DNA from: a virus
Lineage: Duplodnaviria; Heunggongvirae; Uroviricota; Caudoviricetes
Length of the DNA: 27,873 nucleotides
Direction: 5' to 3' (one strand)
Virus record (IMG/VR): IMGVR_UViG_2778261450_000008
Span: 1-27,873 of that record
The notes under the pieces are model-generated. The model was not told the DNA's origin. It searched no databases and saw only the letters and a program-made list of their open reading frames with translations. Positions 1,009-26,072 of this stretch are shown here, one piece after another. Numbering within the stretch: position 1 is the stretch's first letter; each line of letters starts with the position of its first letter. The translations under genes and the position numbers were made by a program.

Positions 1009-1083
1009 GTCCTCTTAGTTAAATGGATATAACGAGCCCCTCCTAAGGGCTAATTGCAGGTTCGATTCCTGCAGGGGACACCA
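1009..1083 (+). tRNA. argW: tRNA-Arg (anticodon CCU); prophage attachment site (attL side)
   Basis: 75-nt sequence GTCCTCTTAGTTAAATGGATATAACGAGCCCCTCCTAAGGGCTAATTGCAGGTTCGATTCCTGCAGGGGACACCA; acceptor stem pairs with the 3' end, CCT anticodon in the loop, GGTTCGATTCC T-arm. An integrase gene follows immediately. Confidence 0.93.
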
Positions 1084-2918: not shown

Positions 2919-3841
2919 AGATATCTCTTGTAGTTCCTGTCTTCAATGAAGAAGAAGCAATACCAATTTTTTATAAAACGGTACGTGAATTCGAAGAGTT
3001 GAAGCCATACGAAGTGGAAATTGTTTTCATAAATGACGGCAGCAAAGACGCTACGGAGTCAATTATTAATGCTCTGGCTGTTTCAGATCCTCTAGTTGTT
3101 CCGCTGTCATTTACACGAAACTTTGGTAAAGAACCAGCATTATTCGCAGGGTTAGACCATGCAACAGGCGATGCTGTTATTCCAATTGATGTTGACCTGC
3201 AAGACCCGATTGAGGTTATTCCTCATCTTATTGAAAAGTGGCAGGCAGGTGCTGATATGGTGCTTGCTAAACGATCTGACCGCTCAACGGATGGCAGACT
3301 GAAGAGGAAAACCGCCGAGTGGTTCTATAAGCTTCACAATAAAATCAGCAATCCGCAGATCGAGGAAAATGTTGGTGATTTCCGTCTGATGTCTCGTGAA
3401 GTCGTAGAGAACATTAAGCTCATGCCAGAACGCAACCTTTTCATGAAGGGTGTTTTGAGTTGGGTTGGTGGTCGCACTGATATCGTTGATTATGCCCGCG
3501 CAGAACGTGTTGCTGGCAGTACCAAGTTCAACGGATGGAAGTTGTGGAATCTTGCTCTTGAGGGAATTACGAGCTTCTCGACTTTTCCGCTACGTATGTG
3601 GACTTACATCGGCCTTCTCGTCGCTGGCTTAGCATTTACATATGGCGCATGGATGATTCTGGACACTCTGGCGTTTGGAAACCCGGTTAGAGGTTATCCA
3701 TCCCTGCTAGTATCTATACTTTTCCTTGGTGGTATCCAACTCATTGGTATTGGTGTTCTTGGTGAGTACATTGGACGAATTTATATTGAAACAAAGCAAA
3801 GGCCGAAATATCTTTTAAAGAGTTCTAAAAATGAAAAATAA
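2915..3841 (+). CDS. gtrB: GtrB-family bactoprenol glucosyltransferase (GT2 family)
   Basis: 308-aa with an N-terminal GT2 signature (VVPVFNEEE...INDGSKD...DVDLQDP) and C-terminal membrane helices; YfdH/GtrB-like. Confidence 0.88.
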
Positions 3842-5291
3842 CATTAAGATTTACTTATTTATCACATTCTTACTTGCGCTCCCAATTATAATTGCAAATG
3901 TTTACTACAGCGATGATATGAGCAGAGCAATGAGCGGCGTAACTTATTGGGGAATTGATGGTAGACCATTATCAGATAGATTAATGATTATTCTTAATTT
4001 TAACAATCATCTAACTGACTTGGCTCCATTGCCTCTAATAATAGCATGTTTGCTATTGTCTATTTCATTTTATCTATTTCACATTAAATTATTTAATTCA
4101 GATAATCATTATCTTTTTTTACCGTTGTCATTTTTATTAAGTCCATTTATAATCGAACCTCTATCATACAGGTTTGATAGCTTAACCATCTCAGCTTCGA
4201 TATTTTTTGCATTTGCATTTATTTGTCTAAACTATAAAAACACGGTAATTTCATTTATTTTACATTCTAGCTTTATAGTTATCTTATTTTCATTTTACCA
4301 AGCATCTATTAATATAGTTTTTATATTAATCTCTATAGAAATGTTTGTTAACATAAAGAATAATAAAGAGCCAACACACATAATAAAGTCAATTGCATTT
4401 CGAATTATCGAAGTATTGGTTGGCGCTGTTATCTATATGAGGGTTGTACTGCCGTTAACTCATGTTAATGACAATAGTCAAAATCACCCAGGAGTTGCCA
4501 CAAATATTATAGATGTAATTCATAAGAACTTTATTGCGTATTATGATTTCTACACTAGAAATATAATCCCTGAGCATGGGAGTGAATTATTAATTGGTAG
4601 TTTTATTGTATCATTTGCATTTGCCATTAAATTGGTTTTTGTTTACATTAAAAAACACAAGTGTAATGCTGCTGTTTTTTTATCTTTGATGGCAGTGTTA
4701 TCATTACCTTTGACTTTTATATCATCAATGATTTCATTACTTCTCCTTGAAAACACTCTAACAACTTTTGCAAGGGTTTATATTGGGTTTAATGGTCTTT
4801 TTTTATTCATCTTCACCCTTTTATATTTGGGAATAAATAACACAAGAATTGTCAACGGTATATTTTTAATATTCCTTTTTTATATAATTACTCTTTTTTA
4901 TTCATATGGAAATGCTTTGCGAGCACAAGATGATAAAAATAAATACATTGCTGAAATTATTGGGCTAGCGTTAAAAAACATACCCGAAAATAGTGTTAAT
5001 GTTATGTTTAATGGTAGTTCACCAAAATCCCCTATACTACTTAATTCAGAATTAAATTATCCACTATTCAAAACAATAGTACTCGACTACTTCTATAACT
5101 GGTATGGCTCTCATGTATACCTCAAGATTAGAGGAGTAAATCAAAATTATCCTGATTTTTCCAGTAAAGAAGTATCTATGTTCATGAAGGACTATTGTAA
5201 ATCAACACTAATTTATTCATCTAATGATATTAAAATTTATCGTGATAATGAGAATGTAATGGTGAGTTTTGATGATTCTTTATGTAAATAA
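3831..5291 (+). CDS. GtrC-type serotype-specific O-antigen glucosyltransferase (polytopic membrane protein)
   Basis: 486-aa, very hydrophobic, strongly AT-rich codon usage, third position of the gtr operon and overlapping the gtrB stop. The specificity subunit is normally the most divergent and most recently acquired. Confidence 0.7.
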
Positions 5292-5387: not shown

Positions 5388-7193
5388 CTAAATTAGTTTA
5401 ACATCTACATTTCCTGCCGTTATCGGATCTTCAAGAACAGATGCTATGAATCTTACGACTGTGACAGCGCCAGTACCACCATAAACATATCCTTGAATTA
5501 GGTTTGGTGTTGTAGAAGAATCTCGACGAAAGTTAGATGAATTTACTGTTATGTACAAATTAAATGAATTTGTGCCATTGTTCTCAAACCTAAATATTGG
5601 CAAAGAAATTGGTGGATTTGCTGGGACAACCTGAAATTGACATCCATTTATCACCATTGTACCGTCATAAATAGATGGCGAAGCTTGGACTACTGCTATT
5701 CTTTCCCCCTTTACATTCTCACTTCCACAACTATTCATTGTTATTCCATGAGGGTTATTGAAAAGATAAGCTCTTGATATTGTCTCAGTAGTACCAGACA
5801 TAGGAAATATAGAATCAGCAGTACAACAATTTAGTGTTGTGTACTGTTGAGCGTCAATTTCAAAACCAATTTGATAATTAACAACTCCCACCTGGTCTAG
5901 AAGATTACTTGTTCCAGAAAGGTTATATATACCATCCCTCACTTTACCTAAATAAAAACCAGTAAACTGCCCAATAGCCAAACCTAAAAAACCGCACCGT
6001 TCAAATATATTTGAGAAGCAATCTTCACCCCAAAAACCATAATACCCACATTCTACACGCAAGTCTCTTAACAAACTTGAAGCCATGTAAGGAGAGTATA
6101 TTCCATATGTTGGTTGATTATTTCTATCTATAATTTCATGACGTCTTAAAGTAACACCTTGTATCTCTACGCCTGTAGCATAGTTATCACTCTCAACACC
6201 ATCTACAACGAATTTTTTTGGAAGAATAATCAGCAGTGCATCCACTGAGACTCCAGAAATTATGGTGTTCGCGTTATTTGTTGTTTTAGAGATAATCGTC
6301 TTATTTTGACCTTGACCTATGATTCCAGACCATGACTTTACAACAGGACTTTCGGAGGTTAGATATTCACCTGACATAAAATGAATAGGGGTATTATTAT
6401 CATATCCATATGATAAAGCCTTTGATATTGCAGAGGCGTTGTCAAAATCATTTATCGGTTTTGCTCCAAAATACTCTACCCATATCTCACCATCAACAAC
6501 CCTCCTCCAAGCAAATTTACCTGAACTTGGAACAATAACAATCCCTCCATCATCGGCAATCTGTGATGTGCTATTGTCGAAAGACTGGAAGTAACCACCG
6601 CCATAATGTTTTTCAGTTGCTGTAGCACTTGCTGCTGAAGCTACATAGACAATTTCTCCAGCAACTAATGGTATTGAATCCCTCAGCGCATCTAAATTGA
6701 GAAAGTTGCCTATGTGGCGAAAGCCATCATCAGCAGCCAAGTCACTTCTCAACGTATCTATTTTATGGGCATTATTGTCAAGAGCATCTTTGACAGTTTC
6801 ATCTCCATAACCAACCAGAGATGCGCCATCAGGGCCAGAAAGCTCAGCCCTTAACTGATCTGGAGAATATTTCAGTAGATCAGGATAATAGAATTGTTGT
6901 GCGCCATACGCATCATATACAGCCATGGAGTGATTCTGTACAGTTACGAACTTGGTAATCTGTCCGTTATATACGGGGTAACCAGCAGCATTAATGATGA
7001 TTGGTTGCGAAACAGGAACGTGAGAACCGTCTTCGTTCTCTATATAAACCTGAATCTGGTTTTCAGGATTTACCGGGTCAGTGTCAATTTTACCGATATA
7101 AATTTTGCCATTGGCTACAGCTTTAAAAGAACGAGCCATAGTGAAGAGTTGAGAAGGCATGCTTACCACAACATTTGCGGTGATATCTGACAT
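5388..7193 (-). CDS. Tailspike protein: P22-type N-terminal head-binding domain fused to a distinct receptor-binding (probable polysaccharide depolymerase) domain
   Basis: The track ORF starts at 7241 but a GGAG Shine-Dalgarno precedes the ATG at 7193. From there [46 protein letters not shown]... closely matches my recollection of the P22 gp9 N-terminus. The remainder does not match P22 and its 3' part is visibly AT-rich. Confidence 0.85.
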
Positions 7194-21807: not shown

Positions 21808-22095
21808 CTATAATTTTGAATATCCAGACTCAAATACCTCAGCAGGAGAATATGATTCATATCCATCCTCATAGACAACGTAATAGCCTCCAGACATTGG
21901 TCGGTGCTTACAGATATATTCCGCGCTAACATCAAATGCTGCGTATTTCTTATCATCCGGATGAATAATTGCCCCATAACTTGAAGAGCCAGTCTTACCA
22001 GACTGATCTGGGTTTGGCTTATGTTCTATAGAGCCAATCTTCAGGGCGCGAACTTTTTTGTGGCACTGGTATCTCGGCATTTCTTGTTCAGTCAT
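21808..22095 (-). CDS. Hypothetical 95-aa phage protein, function unknown
   Basis: Track ORF packed with 3-9 nt spacings into the - strand operon; contains a GGYYVVYEDGYESY motif and two Cys; no family recognised from memory. Confidence 0.5.
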   Translation of the reverse strand: MTEQEMPRYQCHKKVRALKIGSIEHKPNPDQSGKTGSSSYGAIIHPDDKKYAAFDVSAEYICKHRPMSGGYYVVYEDGYESYSPAEVFESGYSKL

Positions 22096-22098
22096 CTC

Positions 22099-22341
22099 TT
22101 ACACTCCGGTAGTGAACAGGTCTAACGCTTCCTTCGATTTACGCACCGCTTCAAATGTGCGGATCGTGATATCTGAATTAGCGCCGCCTGACTGGAAGTG
22201 AATTTTGAATAACTCAAGCTTCAGCTCGTCAGTGCCAATGAACTGAAATGCTTCTTCTGCGGCTGCGTTCTGGTTCATGACCAGTTTGTAAATCTCTAAC
22301 TGGAATTTCTGTTCTTCAGTCATGGGGGTAATCTCTGCCAT
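22099..22341 (-). CDS. Hypothetical 80-aa phage protein, function unknown
   Basis: Track ORF directly upstream of the 95-aa ORF (3-nt gap), acidic and helical-looking; part of the accessory segment between rha and the terminase genes. Confidence 0.5.
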   Translation of the reverse strand: MAEITPMTEEQKFQLEIYKLVMNQNAAAEEAFQFIGTDELKLELFKIHFQSGGANSDITIRTFEAVRKSKEALDLFTTGV

Positions 22342-22487
22342 TGTTGGCTCCGTTTATCCGTTAAAAGGGATATCAGTTAAGTTATCCCGTGTAAGGTATA
22401 AGCCATTATCAAAGCCACTCTGTAGGGAATGGCTTTTGTGATGGCAATAAAAAAGGCCGACTTAGCGACCAATTTAATAATTAATTA

Positions 22488-22730
22488 TCAATAATGTGGG
22501 AATTGGTTACTATTTTGCAAGATAACCCAAGATGGGCGAAACAAGTCAAAAACATTGATGCTTAACAGGGCTTCATTTATTGATTTTTTTTCATCCGCAG
22601 AAACTCCGCGTCCTGCATTTGACATTACAAGCTGACCATTAACTATTTCACTACATTGTTTTACATAACTACCTTGCGGTATTGATTGAAAGTTACATGT
22701 ACCATTTATTATTTTATCAATTTCACTCAT
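22488..22730 (-). CDS. AT-rich hypothetical 80-aa protein, candidate cargo/moron gene
   Basis: ATG preceded by GAGG (gacGAGGttgatATG); codon usage markedly more AT-rich than the flanking phage genes; no TM helix; followed by a T6 run and flanked by non-coding DNA on both sides. Confidence 0.45.
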   Translation of the reverse strand: MSEIDKIINGTCNFQSIPQGSYVKQCSEIVNGQLVMSNAGRGVSADEKKSINEALLSINVFDLFRPSWVILQNSNQFPHY

Positions 22731-23074
22731 ATCAACCTCGTCTAGTTGTTCGTCATAGATTCAGTGACTGGCGGTGACGATTCCGCTTTTCGGGAGCTAC
22801 CCTAGCCACTGTTTTATTCTATCCGATGTCTTTCCATCAGTACGCCACCACAAAGAATCTTTTTTGCCATAAGGCAGGAGGTTCATCTTTCAGTGGCTGC
22901 CAGTGTTATTTCCCCACTTACTGGCTTGGGTTGTTTCGCTGTACTGCCGTAACTGGTGGTGCACAGATTTAGTTAAATCTGTTCTCGCCTGAACTATCTT
23001 TTACATACCCGGATTGTGGGGATGTAAATCACGGTTTCATTATCAAGCCCACCCGTAGATGGGCTTTGGAATGG

Positions 23075-23593
23075 TCACTTTGGCAGTCCGGGGATCGATA
23101 TTTGCGCCTGCTGCTCAAGCCTTTCGATTCTTGCTATGAGTTGCGGTTTTTTGATCCTGCCCCAGCGGTTCAGCAAGCGTCCTGACATACTGGCAACATC
23201 CTTTTCCTTCATGAACTCCAGCATTAACTCGTTGTGCTCTCTTTGGTATGAGTGAGCCATCTCCATCAGCCTGTCACGCATCCAATTAAATGCTTTGATA
23301 AACGCCTCTTTGATGGCGGCAGCTTTTTTGCCGGTAAACGACATGATGATGTACATCGCACCGTCTTTGGAAATTTCATATTCAACATACTGATTACCCT
23401 TGTGTTCATAGGTAACCCGCGAAAAGTTGCTGGTTAGAAATTCATCCGAACAGTCTAGCTTTTCGATTTTCTGAATGATGTGGTGATGCTGCTTGTCGAA
23501 GTAAGCTGCTACCTTGCGGGAGGTTGTGATCACGCGATCACCAGAAACAACCACCATGTCCCGGAACTCGAGATTAGCCAATTGATGATTCAT
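23075..23593 (-). CDS. rha: Rha-family phage regulatory protein
   Basis: The track ORF begins on GTG at 23629; the internal ATG at 23593 with AAGG upstream gives MNHQLANLEFRDMVVVSGDRVITTSRKVAAYFDKQHHHIIQKIEKL, typical of the Rha N-terminal domain, in the usual position between the lysis cassette and terminase. Confidence 0.7.
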   Translation of the reverse strand: MNHQLANLEFRDMVVVSGDRVITTSRKVAAYFDKQHHHIIQKIEKLDCSDEFLTSNFSRVTYEHKGNQYVEYEISKDGAMYIIMSFTGKKAAAIKEAFIKAFNWMRDRLMEMAHSYQREHNELMLEFMKEKDVASMSGRLLNRWGRIKKPQLIARIERLEQQAQISIPGLPK

Positions 23594-23742
23594 AGCGTCT
23601 TTACCTTTTAGAAAGTGAGCCTGTCTCACAGAAAAGCCGTCCCGAGATGGTCGCCACCATATACGGCAGTTCTCAGGCTCAACTTTCTGAAAGGCTCGGG
23701 TGATGTAATATGCGCGTGAGATGCGCTGTGAAATTCAGATGT

Positions 23743-23797: not shown

Positions 23798-24235
23798 TTA
23801 TTTCAGGCACTGAGTCCTGATGTACTCCTGCAGGTAGTTAACCTGCGCGGTTATCCTATCGATTCCACTTCTGAGACGGTAATAATTGAGTTCAGCATCT
23901 GCTGTAAGTCTTGGGCTTTCTCCATCGCCCATGCTGCTGGCTCCGGTCGTTGGCTTTGCACAGGTGGCGGCGACTTGCAGGCGCTTACGACCAGCAGAAA
24001 CATCAGCACGGAGGCTTTCGATAGTCGCGTTAGCATCAGCAAGCTCCTTTGTGTATCTGGCGTCGAGTTCTGCTACATCACGTTGACGCTTCTGCATATC
24101 AGCGATGATGGATGTGGCTTTATCGCGCTGGTCTTTGTAGGCGATGGCGTTATCACGGTAATGATTAACAGCCCATGACAGGCAGACGATGATGCAGATA
24201 ACCAGAGCGGAGATGATCGCGGTTACTCTGCTCAT
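23798..24235 (-). CDS. Rz: Rz i-spanin (inner-membrane spanin subunit)
   Basis: 145-aa with an N-terminal TM helix ([16 protein letters not shown]) and coiled-coil periplasmic domain; ATGA overlap with the endolysin stop; Rz1 embedded in the +1 frame. Confidence 0.85.
23851..24042 (-). CDS. Rz1: Rz1 o-spanin (outer-membrane lipoprotein), embedded in Rz
   Basis: Out-of-frame ORF inside Rz with a signal peptide and lipobox (LLVVSAC) followed by a Pro-rich segment ([13 protein letters not shown]); exact start uncertain. Confidence 0.65.
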
Positions 24236-24708
24236 ACCTCAATCTCTCTGACCGTTCCGCCCGCTTCTTTGAATTTTGCAATCAGGCTGTCAGCCTTATG
24301 CTCGAACTGACCATAACCAGCGCCCGGCAGTGAAGCCCAGATATTGCTGCAACGGTCGATTGCCTGACGGATATCACCGCGATCAATCATCGGCAAAGCG
24401 CCACGCTCCTTAATCTGCTGCAATGCCACAGCGTCCTGGCTTTTCGGAGAGAAATCTTTCAGGCCAAGCTGCTTACGATAGGCATCCCACCAACGGGAAA
24501 GAAGCTGGTAACGGCCTGCAGCTGTTGATTTGAGTTTGGGGTTTAGCGTGACAAGTTTGCGAGGGTGATCTGAGTAATCAGTGAATAGCTCTCCGCCAAC
24601 AATGACGTCATAACCATGATTTCTGGTTTTCTGCCGTCCGTTATCAGTTCCCTCTGACCACGCCAGCATATCGAGGAACGCCTTACGTTGATTATTGATT
24701 TCCACCAT
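24232..24708 (-). CDS. R: Endolysin, lambda R-type lytic transglycosylase
   Basis: 158-aa; [49 protein letters not shown]... is essentially identical to my recollection of lambda R. Confidence 0.95.
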
Positions 24709-25015
24709 CTTCTACTCCGGCTTTTTTAGCAGCGAAGCGTTTGATAAGCGAACCAATCGAGTCAGTACCGATGTAGCCGATGAACACGCTCGTTATATAA
24801 GCGAGATTGCTACTTAGTCCGGCGAAGTCGAGAAGGTCACGAATGAACCAGGCGATAATGGCGCACATCGTTGCGTCGATTACTGTTTTTGTAAACGCAC
24901 CGCCATTATATCTGCCGCGAAGGTACGCCATTGCAAACGCAAGGATTGCCCCGATGCCTTGTTCCTTTGCCGCGAGAATGGCGGCTAACAGGTCATGTTT
25001 TTCTGGCATCTTCAT
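24692..25015 (-). CDS. S: Holin, lambda S-type (class I) with dual-start motif
   Basis: 107-aa; [54 protein letters not shown]... matches lambda S107/S105, including the Met1-Lys2-Met3 dual start. Confidence 0.95.
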
Positions 25016-25448: not shown

Positions 25449-26072
25449 CTAACGTGTGACAGCATTCAAAATGTTGTCTGCGATTGATTCTTCTTTGTGG
25501 CATTGCACCACCAGAGCGTCATACAGCGGCTTAACAGTGCGTGACCAGGTGGGTTGAGTAAGGTTTGGGATTAGCATCGTTACAGCGCGATATGCGGCGC
25601 TTGCTGGCATCCTTGAATAACCGACGCCTTTGCATCTTCCGCACTCTTTCTCAACAACTCTCCCCCACTGCTCCATTTTGGCTATATCAACCGCACGGCC
25701 TGTACCGTGGCAATCTCTGCATCTTGCGCCCGGCGTCGCGGCACTACGGCAATAATCCGCATAAGCGAATGTTGCGAGCACTTGCAGTACCTTTGTCTTA
25801 GTATTTCCTTCAAGCTTTGCCACACCACGGTATTTCCCCGATACCTTGTGTGCAAATTGCATCAGATAGTTGATAGCCTTTTGTTTGTCGTTCTGGCTGA
25901 GTTCATGTTTACCACAGAATGCAGCCATTCCGAATCCGGCTTGTGATTGCGCCATCCCCATAGCAGCCATCACATCAGTACCGGAAAGAGAGTCAGAAGC
26001 CGTAGCCCGTGGTGAGTCGCTCATCATCGGGCTTTTTGGCGAATGAAATTTAGCTACGCTTTCGAGTCTCAT
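25449..26072 (-). CDS. Q: Late-gene antiterminator Q (lambda type)
   Basis: 207-aa; MRLESVAKFHSPKSPMMSDSPRATASDSLSGTDVMAAMGMAQSQAGFG... with the CRDCHGTGRA...CGRCKG zinc-binding motif; essentially identical to my recollection of lambda Q. Confidence 0.95.
   Translation of the reverse strand: MRLESVAKFHSPKSPMMSDSPRATASDSLSGTDVMAAMGMAQSQAGFGMAAFCGKHELSQNDKQKAINYLMQFAHKVSGKYRGVAKLEGNTKTKVLQVLATFAYADYCRSAATPGARCRDCHGTGRAVDIAKMEQWGRVVEKECGRCKGVGYSRMPASAAYRAVTMLIPNLTQPTWSRTVKPLYDALVVQCHKEESIADNILNAVTR

Follow-up and report, generated by a model that had tools for sequence, protein, structure and literature searches.

A structured int-alpA leader precedes an orphan gene in the late region of a P22-like prophage and suggests a translational switch within an exchangeable cassette

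The stretch of DNA analyzed here, called the window, comprises all 27,873 nucleotides (nt) of IMG/VR virus record IMGVR_UViG_2778261450_000008 (Caudoviricetes). According to its open reading frames (ORFs) and Pfam matches, its minus strand carries the late region of a P22-like (Lederbergvirus-type) prophage, in which an ORF of 80 amino acids (aa), referred to as ORF80, lies between rha and a DUF2560 gene. An earlier note, made from the sequence alone, had described ORF80 as AT rich, preceded by its own GAGG Shine-Dalgarno (SD) site and flanked by noncoding DNA. Indeed, its GC content is 0.337 and that of its third codon positions (GC3) 0.235, compared with 0.42 to 0.52 and 0.35 to 0.56 in the neighboring genes and 0.471 in the entire window; GAGG is found at 22739-22736, 5 nt before the ATG; and neither gap, each placed upstream or downstream as the note had implied for the minus strand, contains a gene-strand ORF of at least 60 aa. 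What the note had missed is a structured int-alpA leader at 22812-22736, which is the real candidate for a control element. The features are given in Table 1.

The window contains a single int-alpA motif (Rfam RF02996), located on the gene strand at 22812-22750, with a score of 38.6 bits (gathering threshold, 35.8) and an E value of 8.8e-5 for the whole window, and thus belongs to the family by its covariance model. The minimum-free-energy fold of the leader is the three-way junction of Rfam (-22.5 kcal/mol), with P1 enclosing P2 and P3 and with the invariant junction bases UAG, GAAAAG, and CCUG in place. The loop of P3, L3, has two complementary sites downstream. Pairing with the first (UCGUCA/UGACGA) gives a pseudoknot of 6 bp with a duplex energy of -7.5 kcal/mol, and pairing with the second, which is separated from the ATG by GGUUGAU (7 nt), gives 5 bp with -7.1 kcal/mol and would occlude the SD. 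In relatives, the same motif stands ahead of a DUF551 gene (45.1 bits) and a gene for an 89-aa protein (38.5 bits). Moreover, the leader of diverged ORF80 copies keeps the fold by compensatory changes (P1, CAUGGC/GCCAUG; P3, GAGUU/AACUC) and retains the same loop and tail sites. The int-alpA motif comes from a survey of 224 candidate structured RNAs (Weinberg et al. 2017, PMC5737381), and our literature search, in which the supplementary description of that survey was not covered, found no paper on its function. Whereas the Rfam family is named for neighboring int and alpA genes, the window copy has rha and DUF2560 as neighbors and would form a 5' leader within a late operon, with an SD following after 19 nt; unlike the Rfam consensus, it has no U tract after P1.

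Table 1. Features of the region on the minus strand, in the direction of transcription
Feature	Position	Strand	Remarks
Gene-23-type antiterminator gene	25449-26072	-	Followed by PR'/tR' region
Holin gene	24692-25015	-	
Lysozyme gene	24232-24708	-	
Rz gene	23798-24235	-	
rha	23075-23629	-	Upstream neighbor of the gap; Pfam Phage_pRha and ORF11CD3
Noncoding gap upstream of ORF80	22731-23074		344 bp
Hairpin A, AAAGCCCATCTACGGGTGGGCTT, then GATAATG	23033-23067	-	Directly after the rha stop codon
Optional module	22963-23028	-	Hairpin B (23028-23000) and palindrome (22982-22963); inverted repeats I15, I25
Ultraconserved noncoding block	22820-22950	-	131 nt
Proposed mobile cassette (structured leader, ORF80, terminator)	22439-22823	-	Homology limits
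int-alpA three-way junction	22761-22812	-	Rfam match and minimum-free-energy fold
P1	22812-22805 paired with 22768-22761	-	
P2	22802-22792	-	
Junction GAAAA	22791-22787	-	
P3	22786-22771	-	Loop L3, AAUCGUCA, at 22782-22775
Pseudoknot site 1 (UGACGA)	22750-22755	-	Complementary to L3
Site 2 (GACGA)	22736-22742	-	Overlaps SD GAGG; alternative partner of L3
ORF80	22488-22730	-	80 aa; ATG start; orphan; three helices predicted
Noncoding gap downstream of ORF80	22342-22487		146 bp
Hairpin GGTCGCTAAGTCGGCC, then T6, intrinsic-terminator-like	22449-22470	-	Terminator scan
Hairpin D (AAAGCCA...TGGCTTT), then GATAATG	22395-22436	-	Direct repeat of the post-rha element; families D6/D7
DUF2560 gene	22099-22341	-	Downstream neighbor; PF10834, E = 2.3e-42; counterpart of P22 orf80 (P22 annotation)

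Instances of the motif were collected by a pattern scan of IMG/VR with a filter for P1 pairing, which yielded 69 instances with 40 distinct motif sequences. The junction bases were invariant in 37 distinct sequences, and the P1/P2 covariation score of these 37 was 0.486, compared with 0.116 in shuffles, none of which (0 of 500) scored as high; the covariation collapsed when the partners were slid against each other. The partner sites of L3 and the placement of the ORF were not imposed by the search. At site 1, located 5 to 14 nt (median, 7) after P1, at least five Watson-Crick pairs with L3 were possible in 89% of 27 distinct loops but in only 4.6% of mismatched controls (p = 4e-18), and the pseudoknot had a median of 6 bp in matched and 3 bp in mismatched pairs. 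Likewise, at least 5 bp with the SD region were found for 67% of the distinct loops, compared with 8.6% of mismatched controls (p = 4e-10). This second site lies on or abuts the SD and ends a median of 7 nt before the start codon (examples are GACGAgg, GCGGAgg, UGAUGAGAgg, AGAGGAgg, GGGGAgg, UCACAGgagg, and GAAGGag). All 69 instances share the strand of an ORF whose start follows at a median distance of 32 nt, and the proteins encoded downstream form 36 unrelated clusters, among them HNH, KilA-N, Rha, Dam, DUF1376, and DUF551, besides numerous orphans. Upstream, a same-strand ORF ends nearby in 43 of 56 contexts, a median of 12 nt before P1. A corresponding scan of bacterial genomes was swamped by chance matches (120 stretches, of which 7 passed the pairing filter and 4 were judged true), and both L3 sites were present in all four true motifs, which come from other phyla, including Chitinophaga and Terriglobia assemblies. 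As read from these alignments, int-alpA is a covarying three-way junction with a pseudoknot. A role in cis is favored by the same-strand position before an ORF together with the complementarity of L3 and SD, and the arrangement suggests that the leader is an intercistronic translational switch.

At least seven unrelated coding sequences (CDSs) in viral contigs and Escherichia coli loci are enclosed by this leader and this terminator, and one CDS replaces another with junctions precisely at the start codon and about 17 nt past the stop codon. The window is homologous up to 22733 with the DUF551 locus (L004) and up to 22727 with the BIS08P22 locus (L007), and in both cases homology resumes at 22470; the breakpoints are the start codon and the terminator. 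The flanks common with HK620, Sf6, and Huey end at 22820/22825 and resume at 22442/22420. Homology to diverged ORF80 cassettes extends from 22823 to 22439 in L008 (80.6% identity) and from 22792 to 22444 in L009-L013 (about 77 to 78% identity). The diverged copies represented by protein P0004 lie at a second place, in the leader of the late operon, where they directly follow the Q antiterminator gene and precede the holin gene. Locus L010 has two leader-CDS-terminator cassettes, one at 3937-4285 with the ORF80 homologue after the antiterminator gene and one at 6203-6563 with DUF551 before DUF2560. Furthermore, the same terminator element follows unrelated CDSs in L004, L007, L010, L029, L032, L052, L059, L081, L093, and L107. 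Therefore, from the frame shared by different CDSs and from the ORF80 cassette at a second late-operon site, we take 22823-22439 to be a mobile leader-CDS-terminator cassette. In these loci, two further RNA-like elements were seen. Matches to the type III hammerhead ribozyme that stay below the threshold (29.6 to 30.5 bits; gathering score, 48.5) lie just downstream of the antiterminator gene in L009-L013, at about 3760-3821 (1207-1267 in L011), with CUGAUGA...GAAAC cores and a GUC site; they have U.U at the conserved closing pair of stem II, and the sequence is absent from the window. In L008, a match to the Hfq-binding small RNA (sRNA) family isrJ at 1323-1401, just after the Q gene, scores above the gathering score (44.2 versus 37).

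The earlier note had called for a comparison of the locus across related prophages, and this comparison found the same flanks with different contents. The site from rha and the lysis genes to DUF2560 and the terminase genes has at least eight alternative contents among relatives: it is empty in HK620; it holds Gp49_66 in Sf6 and Huey, the DUF551 gene in L004, the 89-aa ORF in the BIS08P22 locus, GIY-YIG or HNH genes (by annotation) in others, and an unannotated opposite-strand ORF in P22; and in one genome ORF80 and Gp49_66 stand in tandem. The flanking gap sequence matches 2,567 of 5,426 complete E. coli genomes and ORF80 only 15. With its deviant composition, shared flanks, and swapped contents, ORF80 is foreign-looking cargo at a variable site, as the note had proposed. 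Two leads on the contents of the site were dropped: the Salmonella BTP1 gene st313-td was considered for this place, but the paper shows that the gene is bstA, next to cI, and the label "anti-CRISPR" on Gp49_66 of Huey is not backed by PHROGs, where the family is listed as of unknown function.

Taken together, we consider it reasonably probable that ORF80 is the payload of a promoterless cassette inserted at a late-operon hotspot, with translation gated by the leader. The cassette would be transcribed within the Q-antiterminated late transcript, which would start about 2.6 kb upstream. If L3 (UCGUCA) pairs with the proximal decoy at 22755-22750, the SD would be free; if it pairs instead with the nearly isoenergetic second copy on the SD (22742-22738), initiation would be blocked. 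The balance between the two pairings could be set by a ligand or protein bound to the conserved junction nucleotides or by ribosomes that terminate about 12 nt upstream and melt P1. Leader and terminator might double as homology arms for CDS swapping by phage recombination; CDS exchange exactly at the ends would be explained because the conserved leader and terminator allow homologous recombination.

Several observations weigh against this interpretation. The search pattern fixed the conserved junction and P3 bases and P1 was prefiltered, so that P3 is uninformative and the percentage of P1 pairing is inflated. The loop families are not fully independent (CGUCA is common to 5 of 27), and a purine-rich SD raises the background of complementarity, which the mismatched control accounts for. 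Rfam types int-alpA as "Gene; sRNA." In L008, the leader is degenerate while the ORF is intact, so the leader may be dispensable. The promoter test was a consensus scan, which weak or non-sigma-70 promoters would escape, and late-operon expression is probable as judged from the surroundings of the gene. A terminator directly after ORF80 is what a moron expressed in the lysogen needs. Finally, the structure model of the protein is of low confidence and its role is a guess.

The strongest competitor is a classical moron. The moron concept is reportedly that of Juhala and Hendrix. Morons of lambdoid phages have been described for P22-like phages (PMC2629481). In that case, a promoter belonging to ORF80 would drive its transcription in the repressed prophage up to its own terminator, and the product would be a lysogenic conversion, exclusion, or defense factor. 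It resembles morons as an extra gene of deviant composition at a varying site among syntenic relatives (absent in HK620) with a terminator behind it, and this terminator makes expression in the lysogen a possible alternative. The P22 ORF at the same site, which has an SD and a terminator of its own, must by its orientation be expressed independently. However, the scan of the gene strand at 22731-23140, relaxed thresholds included, found no sigma-70-type promoter, and instances of the leader class follow the upstream stop codon by about 12 nt, which leaves no room for one. The -10-like boxes that many instances have just 5' of P1 (TAGAAT, TATAAT, GATAAT) were rejected as a general promoter because upstream ORFs end a median of 12 nt before P1 and a start 7 nt downstream would fall inside P1. 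Moreover, the diverged P0004 copies are situated between antiterminator and holin genes, with the terminator-tail-like CGGGGCTTTTT just 5' of their leader; the leader is common to many unrelated genes; and ORF80 has no match in PADLOC. Thus, the suggestion that ORF80 is expressed from its own promoter in the lysogen gained no support. Since the gap is devoid of a sigma-70-like promoter and the motif class is tightly intercistronic, late-gene transcription is the likelier mode, and we regard the moron as unlikely. As to P22 itself (L134, NC_002371), the unannotated ORF of about 85 to 90 aa in the gap between rha and orf80 lies on the minus strand of the locus at about 1722-2030; with its AAGGAG SD and strong terminator (GCCGCTAAGTAAGCGGCTTTTTT), it has the appearance of a classical moron in this hotspot.

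A second alternative, which we rate as rather less probable still, is that the leader is an RNA processing or stabilizing element or a self-cleaving ribozyme, which would cut the late mRNA and protect the downstream 5' end without switching the SD. An intercistronic position, an A/U-rich segment just 5' of P1 in many instances, the compact junction-plus-pseudoknot fold with its invariant junction bases, and the hairpin-rich flanking gaps would all suit such an element, but it leaves the covarying copy of the L3 complement on the SD unexplained, and no Rfam ribozyme family matched. GC-rich hairpins followed by GATAATG recur as a kind of punctuation at cassette borders, after genes or before the next leader: in addition to the two copies in the window, they precede int-alpA leaders in L020 and L032. 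They could be 3'-end protection, RNase sites, or recombination boundaries.

Could the leader and terminator be conserved only as DNA, as boundary sequences for recombination, with no role for the RNA fold? The boundary sequence concept for the modules of HK620 and Sf6 reportedly goes back to Clark et al. in 2001, and boundary sequences are annotated as bsq features in the Sf6 record. Like these, the 131-nt block, the hairpin with GATAATG, the leader, and the terminator are short conserved noncoding stretches at mosaic junctions. Leader and terminator sequences that hardly vary whichever CDS they enclose, and breakpoints that coincide with the CDS ends, are what this idea predicts, and the adjoining 131-nt block is equally ultraconserved with no visible function. 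Unlike a mere boundary, the leader also carries a covarying RNA fold, and distant families with differing sequences keep the fold and both L3 sites by compensatory changes. Because homology arms alone would not yield such changes, the idea is weakened and seems improbable to us for the leader. For the 131-nt block, in contrast, a recombination boundary is the probable role. It is present with at least 95% identity in 1,120 of the 5,426 E. coli genomes and occurs in P22, HK97, HK022, ST64T, and Stx2 phages, whatever genes adjoin. The 255-nt upstream gap consisting of the block and the hairpins upstream of it folds far better than shuffles (z = -4.1); covariation of the block itself could not be analyzed, nearly all copies being at least 95% identical. 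We also considered the block as the N terminus of an ancestral gene represented by ST64T orf118, but this was rejected: orf118 (L136, 1448-1804) is a DUF2560 ORF that runs upstream into the conserved block, through an empty site free of in-frame stop codons, and is probably an overlong annotation. Therefore, the block need not be coding. A 29-codon ORF (MNLLPYGKKDSLWWRTDGKTSDRIKQWLG) at 22797-22886 on the minus strand starts in the block and stops at the TAG in the P2 loop of int-alpA; its SD is poor, and its translation, if any, would unwind P1 and P2.

The palindrome to which the earlier note had drawn attention is present and perfect, with arms (ACAGATTTA/TAAATCTGT) at 22963-22971 and 22974-22982 and a 2-nt loop, which makes 9 bp per arm and not the 8 bp given before. 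Perfect repeats of this kind (9-bp arms, loop of up to 10 nt) occur six times in the window, compared with a mean of 1.1 and a maximum of 5 in shuffles, and are thus only modestly above chance. In HK620 the palindrome is imperfect, and in Huey it is deleted; it belongs to a module of about 70 nt that is optional and missing in most relatives (the upstream 260 nt are covered to at least 80% in only 14 of 200 phage records). An operator or other regulatory element, as had been envisaged, is not borne out: the module is optional, the perfect repeat is not kept, and no promoter is near. We conclude that the palindrome is incidental.

It is highly improbable that int-alpA is the gene of a trans-acting sRNA that stands beside an unrelated small ORF by chance. 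Apart from its type in Rfam, the U-rich tract after P1 in the Rfam consensus would fit an sRNA gene, but the window copy is without that tract, the 69 instances share the strand of an SD-led ORF a median of 32 nt downstream, L3 is complementary to the SD region, and leader and ORF80 have been coinherited through about 23% divergence.

That ORF80 has arisen by chance or is the remnant of a decaying gene, as its truncated variants, a genome copy differing in length by 1 nt, and a run of eight A residues might hint, is hardly credible given a ratio of nonsynonymous to synonymous substitutions (dN/dS) of about 0.2 at a dS of 0.7 to 0.8, a length kept at 79 to 80 aa across about 70% identity, and an SD at the proper spacing. 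Two diverged alleles are known, P0002 and P0004, both of 79 aa and about 70% identity, and comparison with L008 and L010 gave dN/dS values of 0.195 to 0.219 over 79 codons. From these values, ORF80 is under purifying selection: it is a true but rare gene that is not decaying and, as the note had held, a single small one. All 15 E. coli copies span 100% of the query, one aligning 244 nt to the 243-nt query. This copy and two truncated 52-aa entries of the protein database, P0005 (15 member sequences) and P0006, suggest slippage at the A8 run on the coding strand (22584-22591), which could be real phase variation or a homopolymer sequencing error.

The protein has no match in Pfam, PHROGs, or PADLOC, a tblastn search of 50,697 phage records gave none, and among 5.8 billion proteins it matches only six clusters. 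An exhaustive hidden Markov model search of 1.84 billion representatives found nothing credible beyond its own family; five weak matches (E = 5e-6 to 9e-4) each comprised several stretches of proteins of 706 to 3,674 aa. The structure prediction that the note had proposed gave a low-confidence AlphaFold2 model (predicted local distance difference test score, 66) with helices at 3-11, 22-37, and 45-72 and led to no structural neighbor: a fold search against BFVD returned nothing below E = 1.7, and a profile search of PDB sequences returned no match. Thus, no homology to a known defense or antidefense family was found in PADLOC, Pfam, PHROGs, PDB, or BFVD. Our guess is a small cytoplasmic helical factor acting late in lytic growth, possibly in host takeover or antidefense.

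Elsewhere in the window, the gene order past DUF2560 is two small ORFs, the small terminase subunit gene, and the large terminase subunit gene, and the phage records nearest to the window are those of Escherichia phages Gally, APC_JM3.2, and JEP4, as well as HK620, Sf6, and IME10. The 95-aa ORF after DUF2560 (21808-22095, minus strand) has rather AT-rich third positions (GC3, 0.35), and its C-terminal half matches PHROG 9467, which also matches the C terminus of Sf6 gp66 (Gp49_66); it may be a further piece of cargo. Near the left end, an intact tRNA-Arg gene (anticodon CCT; 1009-1083, plus strand) presumably marks the region of the prophage attachment site.

The proposed switch has counterparts in known systems. 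Translational riboswitches such as the preQ1-II and SAM-II classes sequester the SD in a pseudoknot. int-alpA shares with them a pseudoknotted, aptamer-like fold and an anti-SD segment with alternative partners, but its architecture is different, a three-way junction being joined by a loop, a decoy, and a copy on the SD, and a ligand is only a candidate. The genes downstream of int-alpA are unrelated, which is atypical for metabolite riboswitches and makes a pathway-specific metabolite unlikely. Integron cassettes are promoterless single-CDS units with a conserved structured sequence that are swapped and stacked at one fixed location, where a promoter upstream provides transcription. The cassettes described here likewise frame a promoterless single CDS with structured sequence, can be stacked in tandem, and would be read from upstream; they differ in that there is no integron integrase and no attC, in that the structured element precedes the CDS and, as RNA, shows covariation with the SD, and in that exchange presumably proceeds by homologous recombination at leader and terminator.

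A broader view, which we offer tentatively and hold to be doubtful as yet, is that int-alpA is a widespread phage riboregulator whose junction senses a small molecule, a protein, or ribosome traffic and thereby toggles L3 between decoy and SD, and that leader and terminator form a universal socket into which homologous recombination inserts unrelated accessory genes, integron-like but with no dedicated recombinase. The payloads of this socket, mostly orphans, would possibly be antidefense or host takeover factors such as ORF80. What lends the locus moderate interest is the reusable structured leader that it brings to light, whose switch architecture is testable; otherwise ORF80 would be an ordinary orphan gene, and as one rare payload it matters mainly as an entry point to the cassette system. 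The leader model, if true, would assign to an orphan Rfam motif a concrete function open to tests by reporter mutagenesis, and the int-alpA leader with the shared terminator would be a signature for finding accessory cassettes of temperate phages. The hotspot is present in roughly half of the sequenced E. coli genomes, with payloads almost all of unknown function, and phages would, if the model holds, exchange individual genes with start-codon precision and leave the control of expression unchanged.

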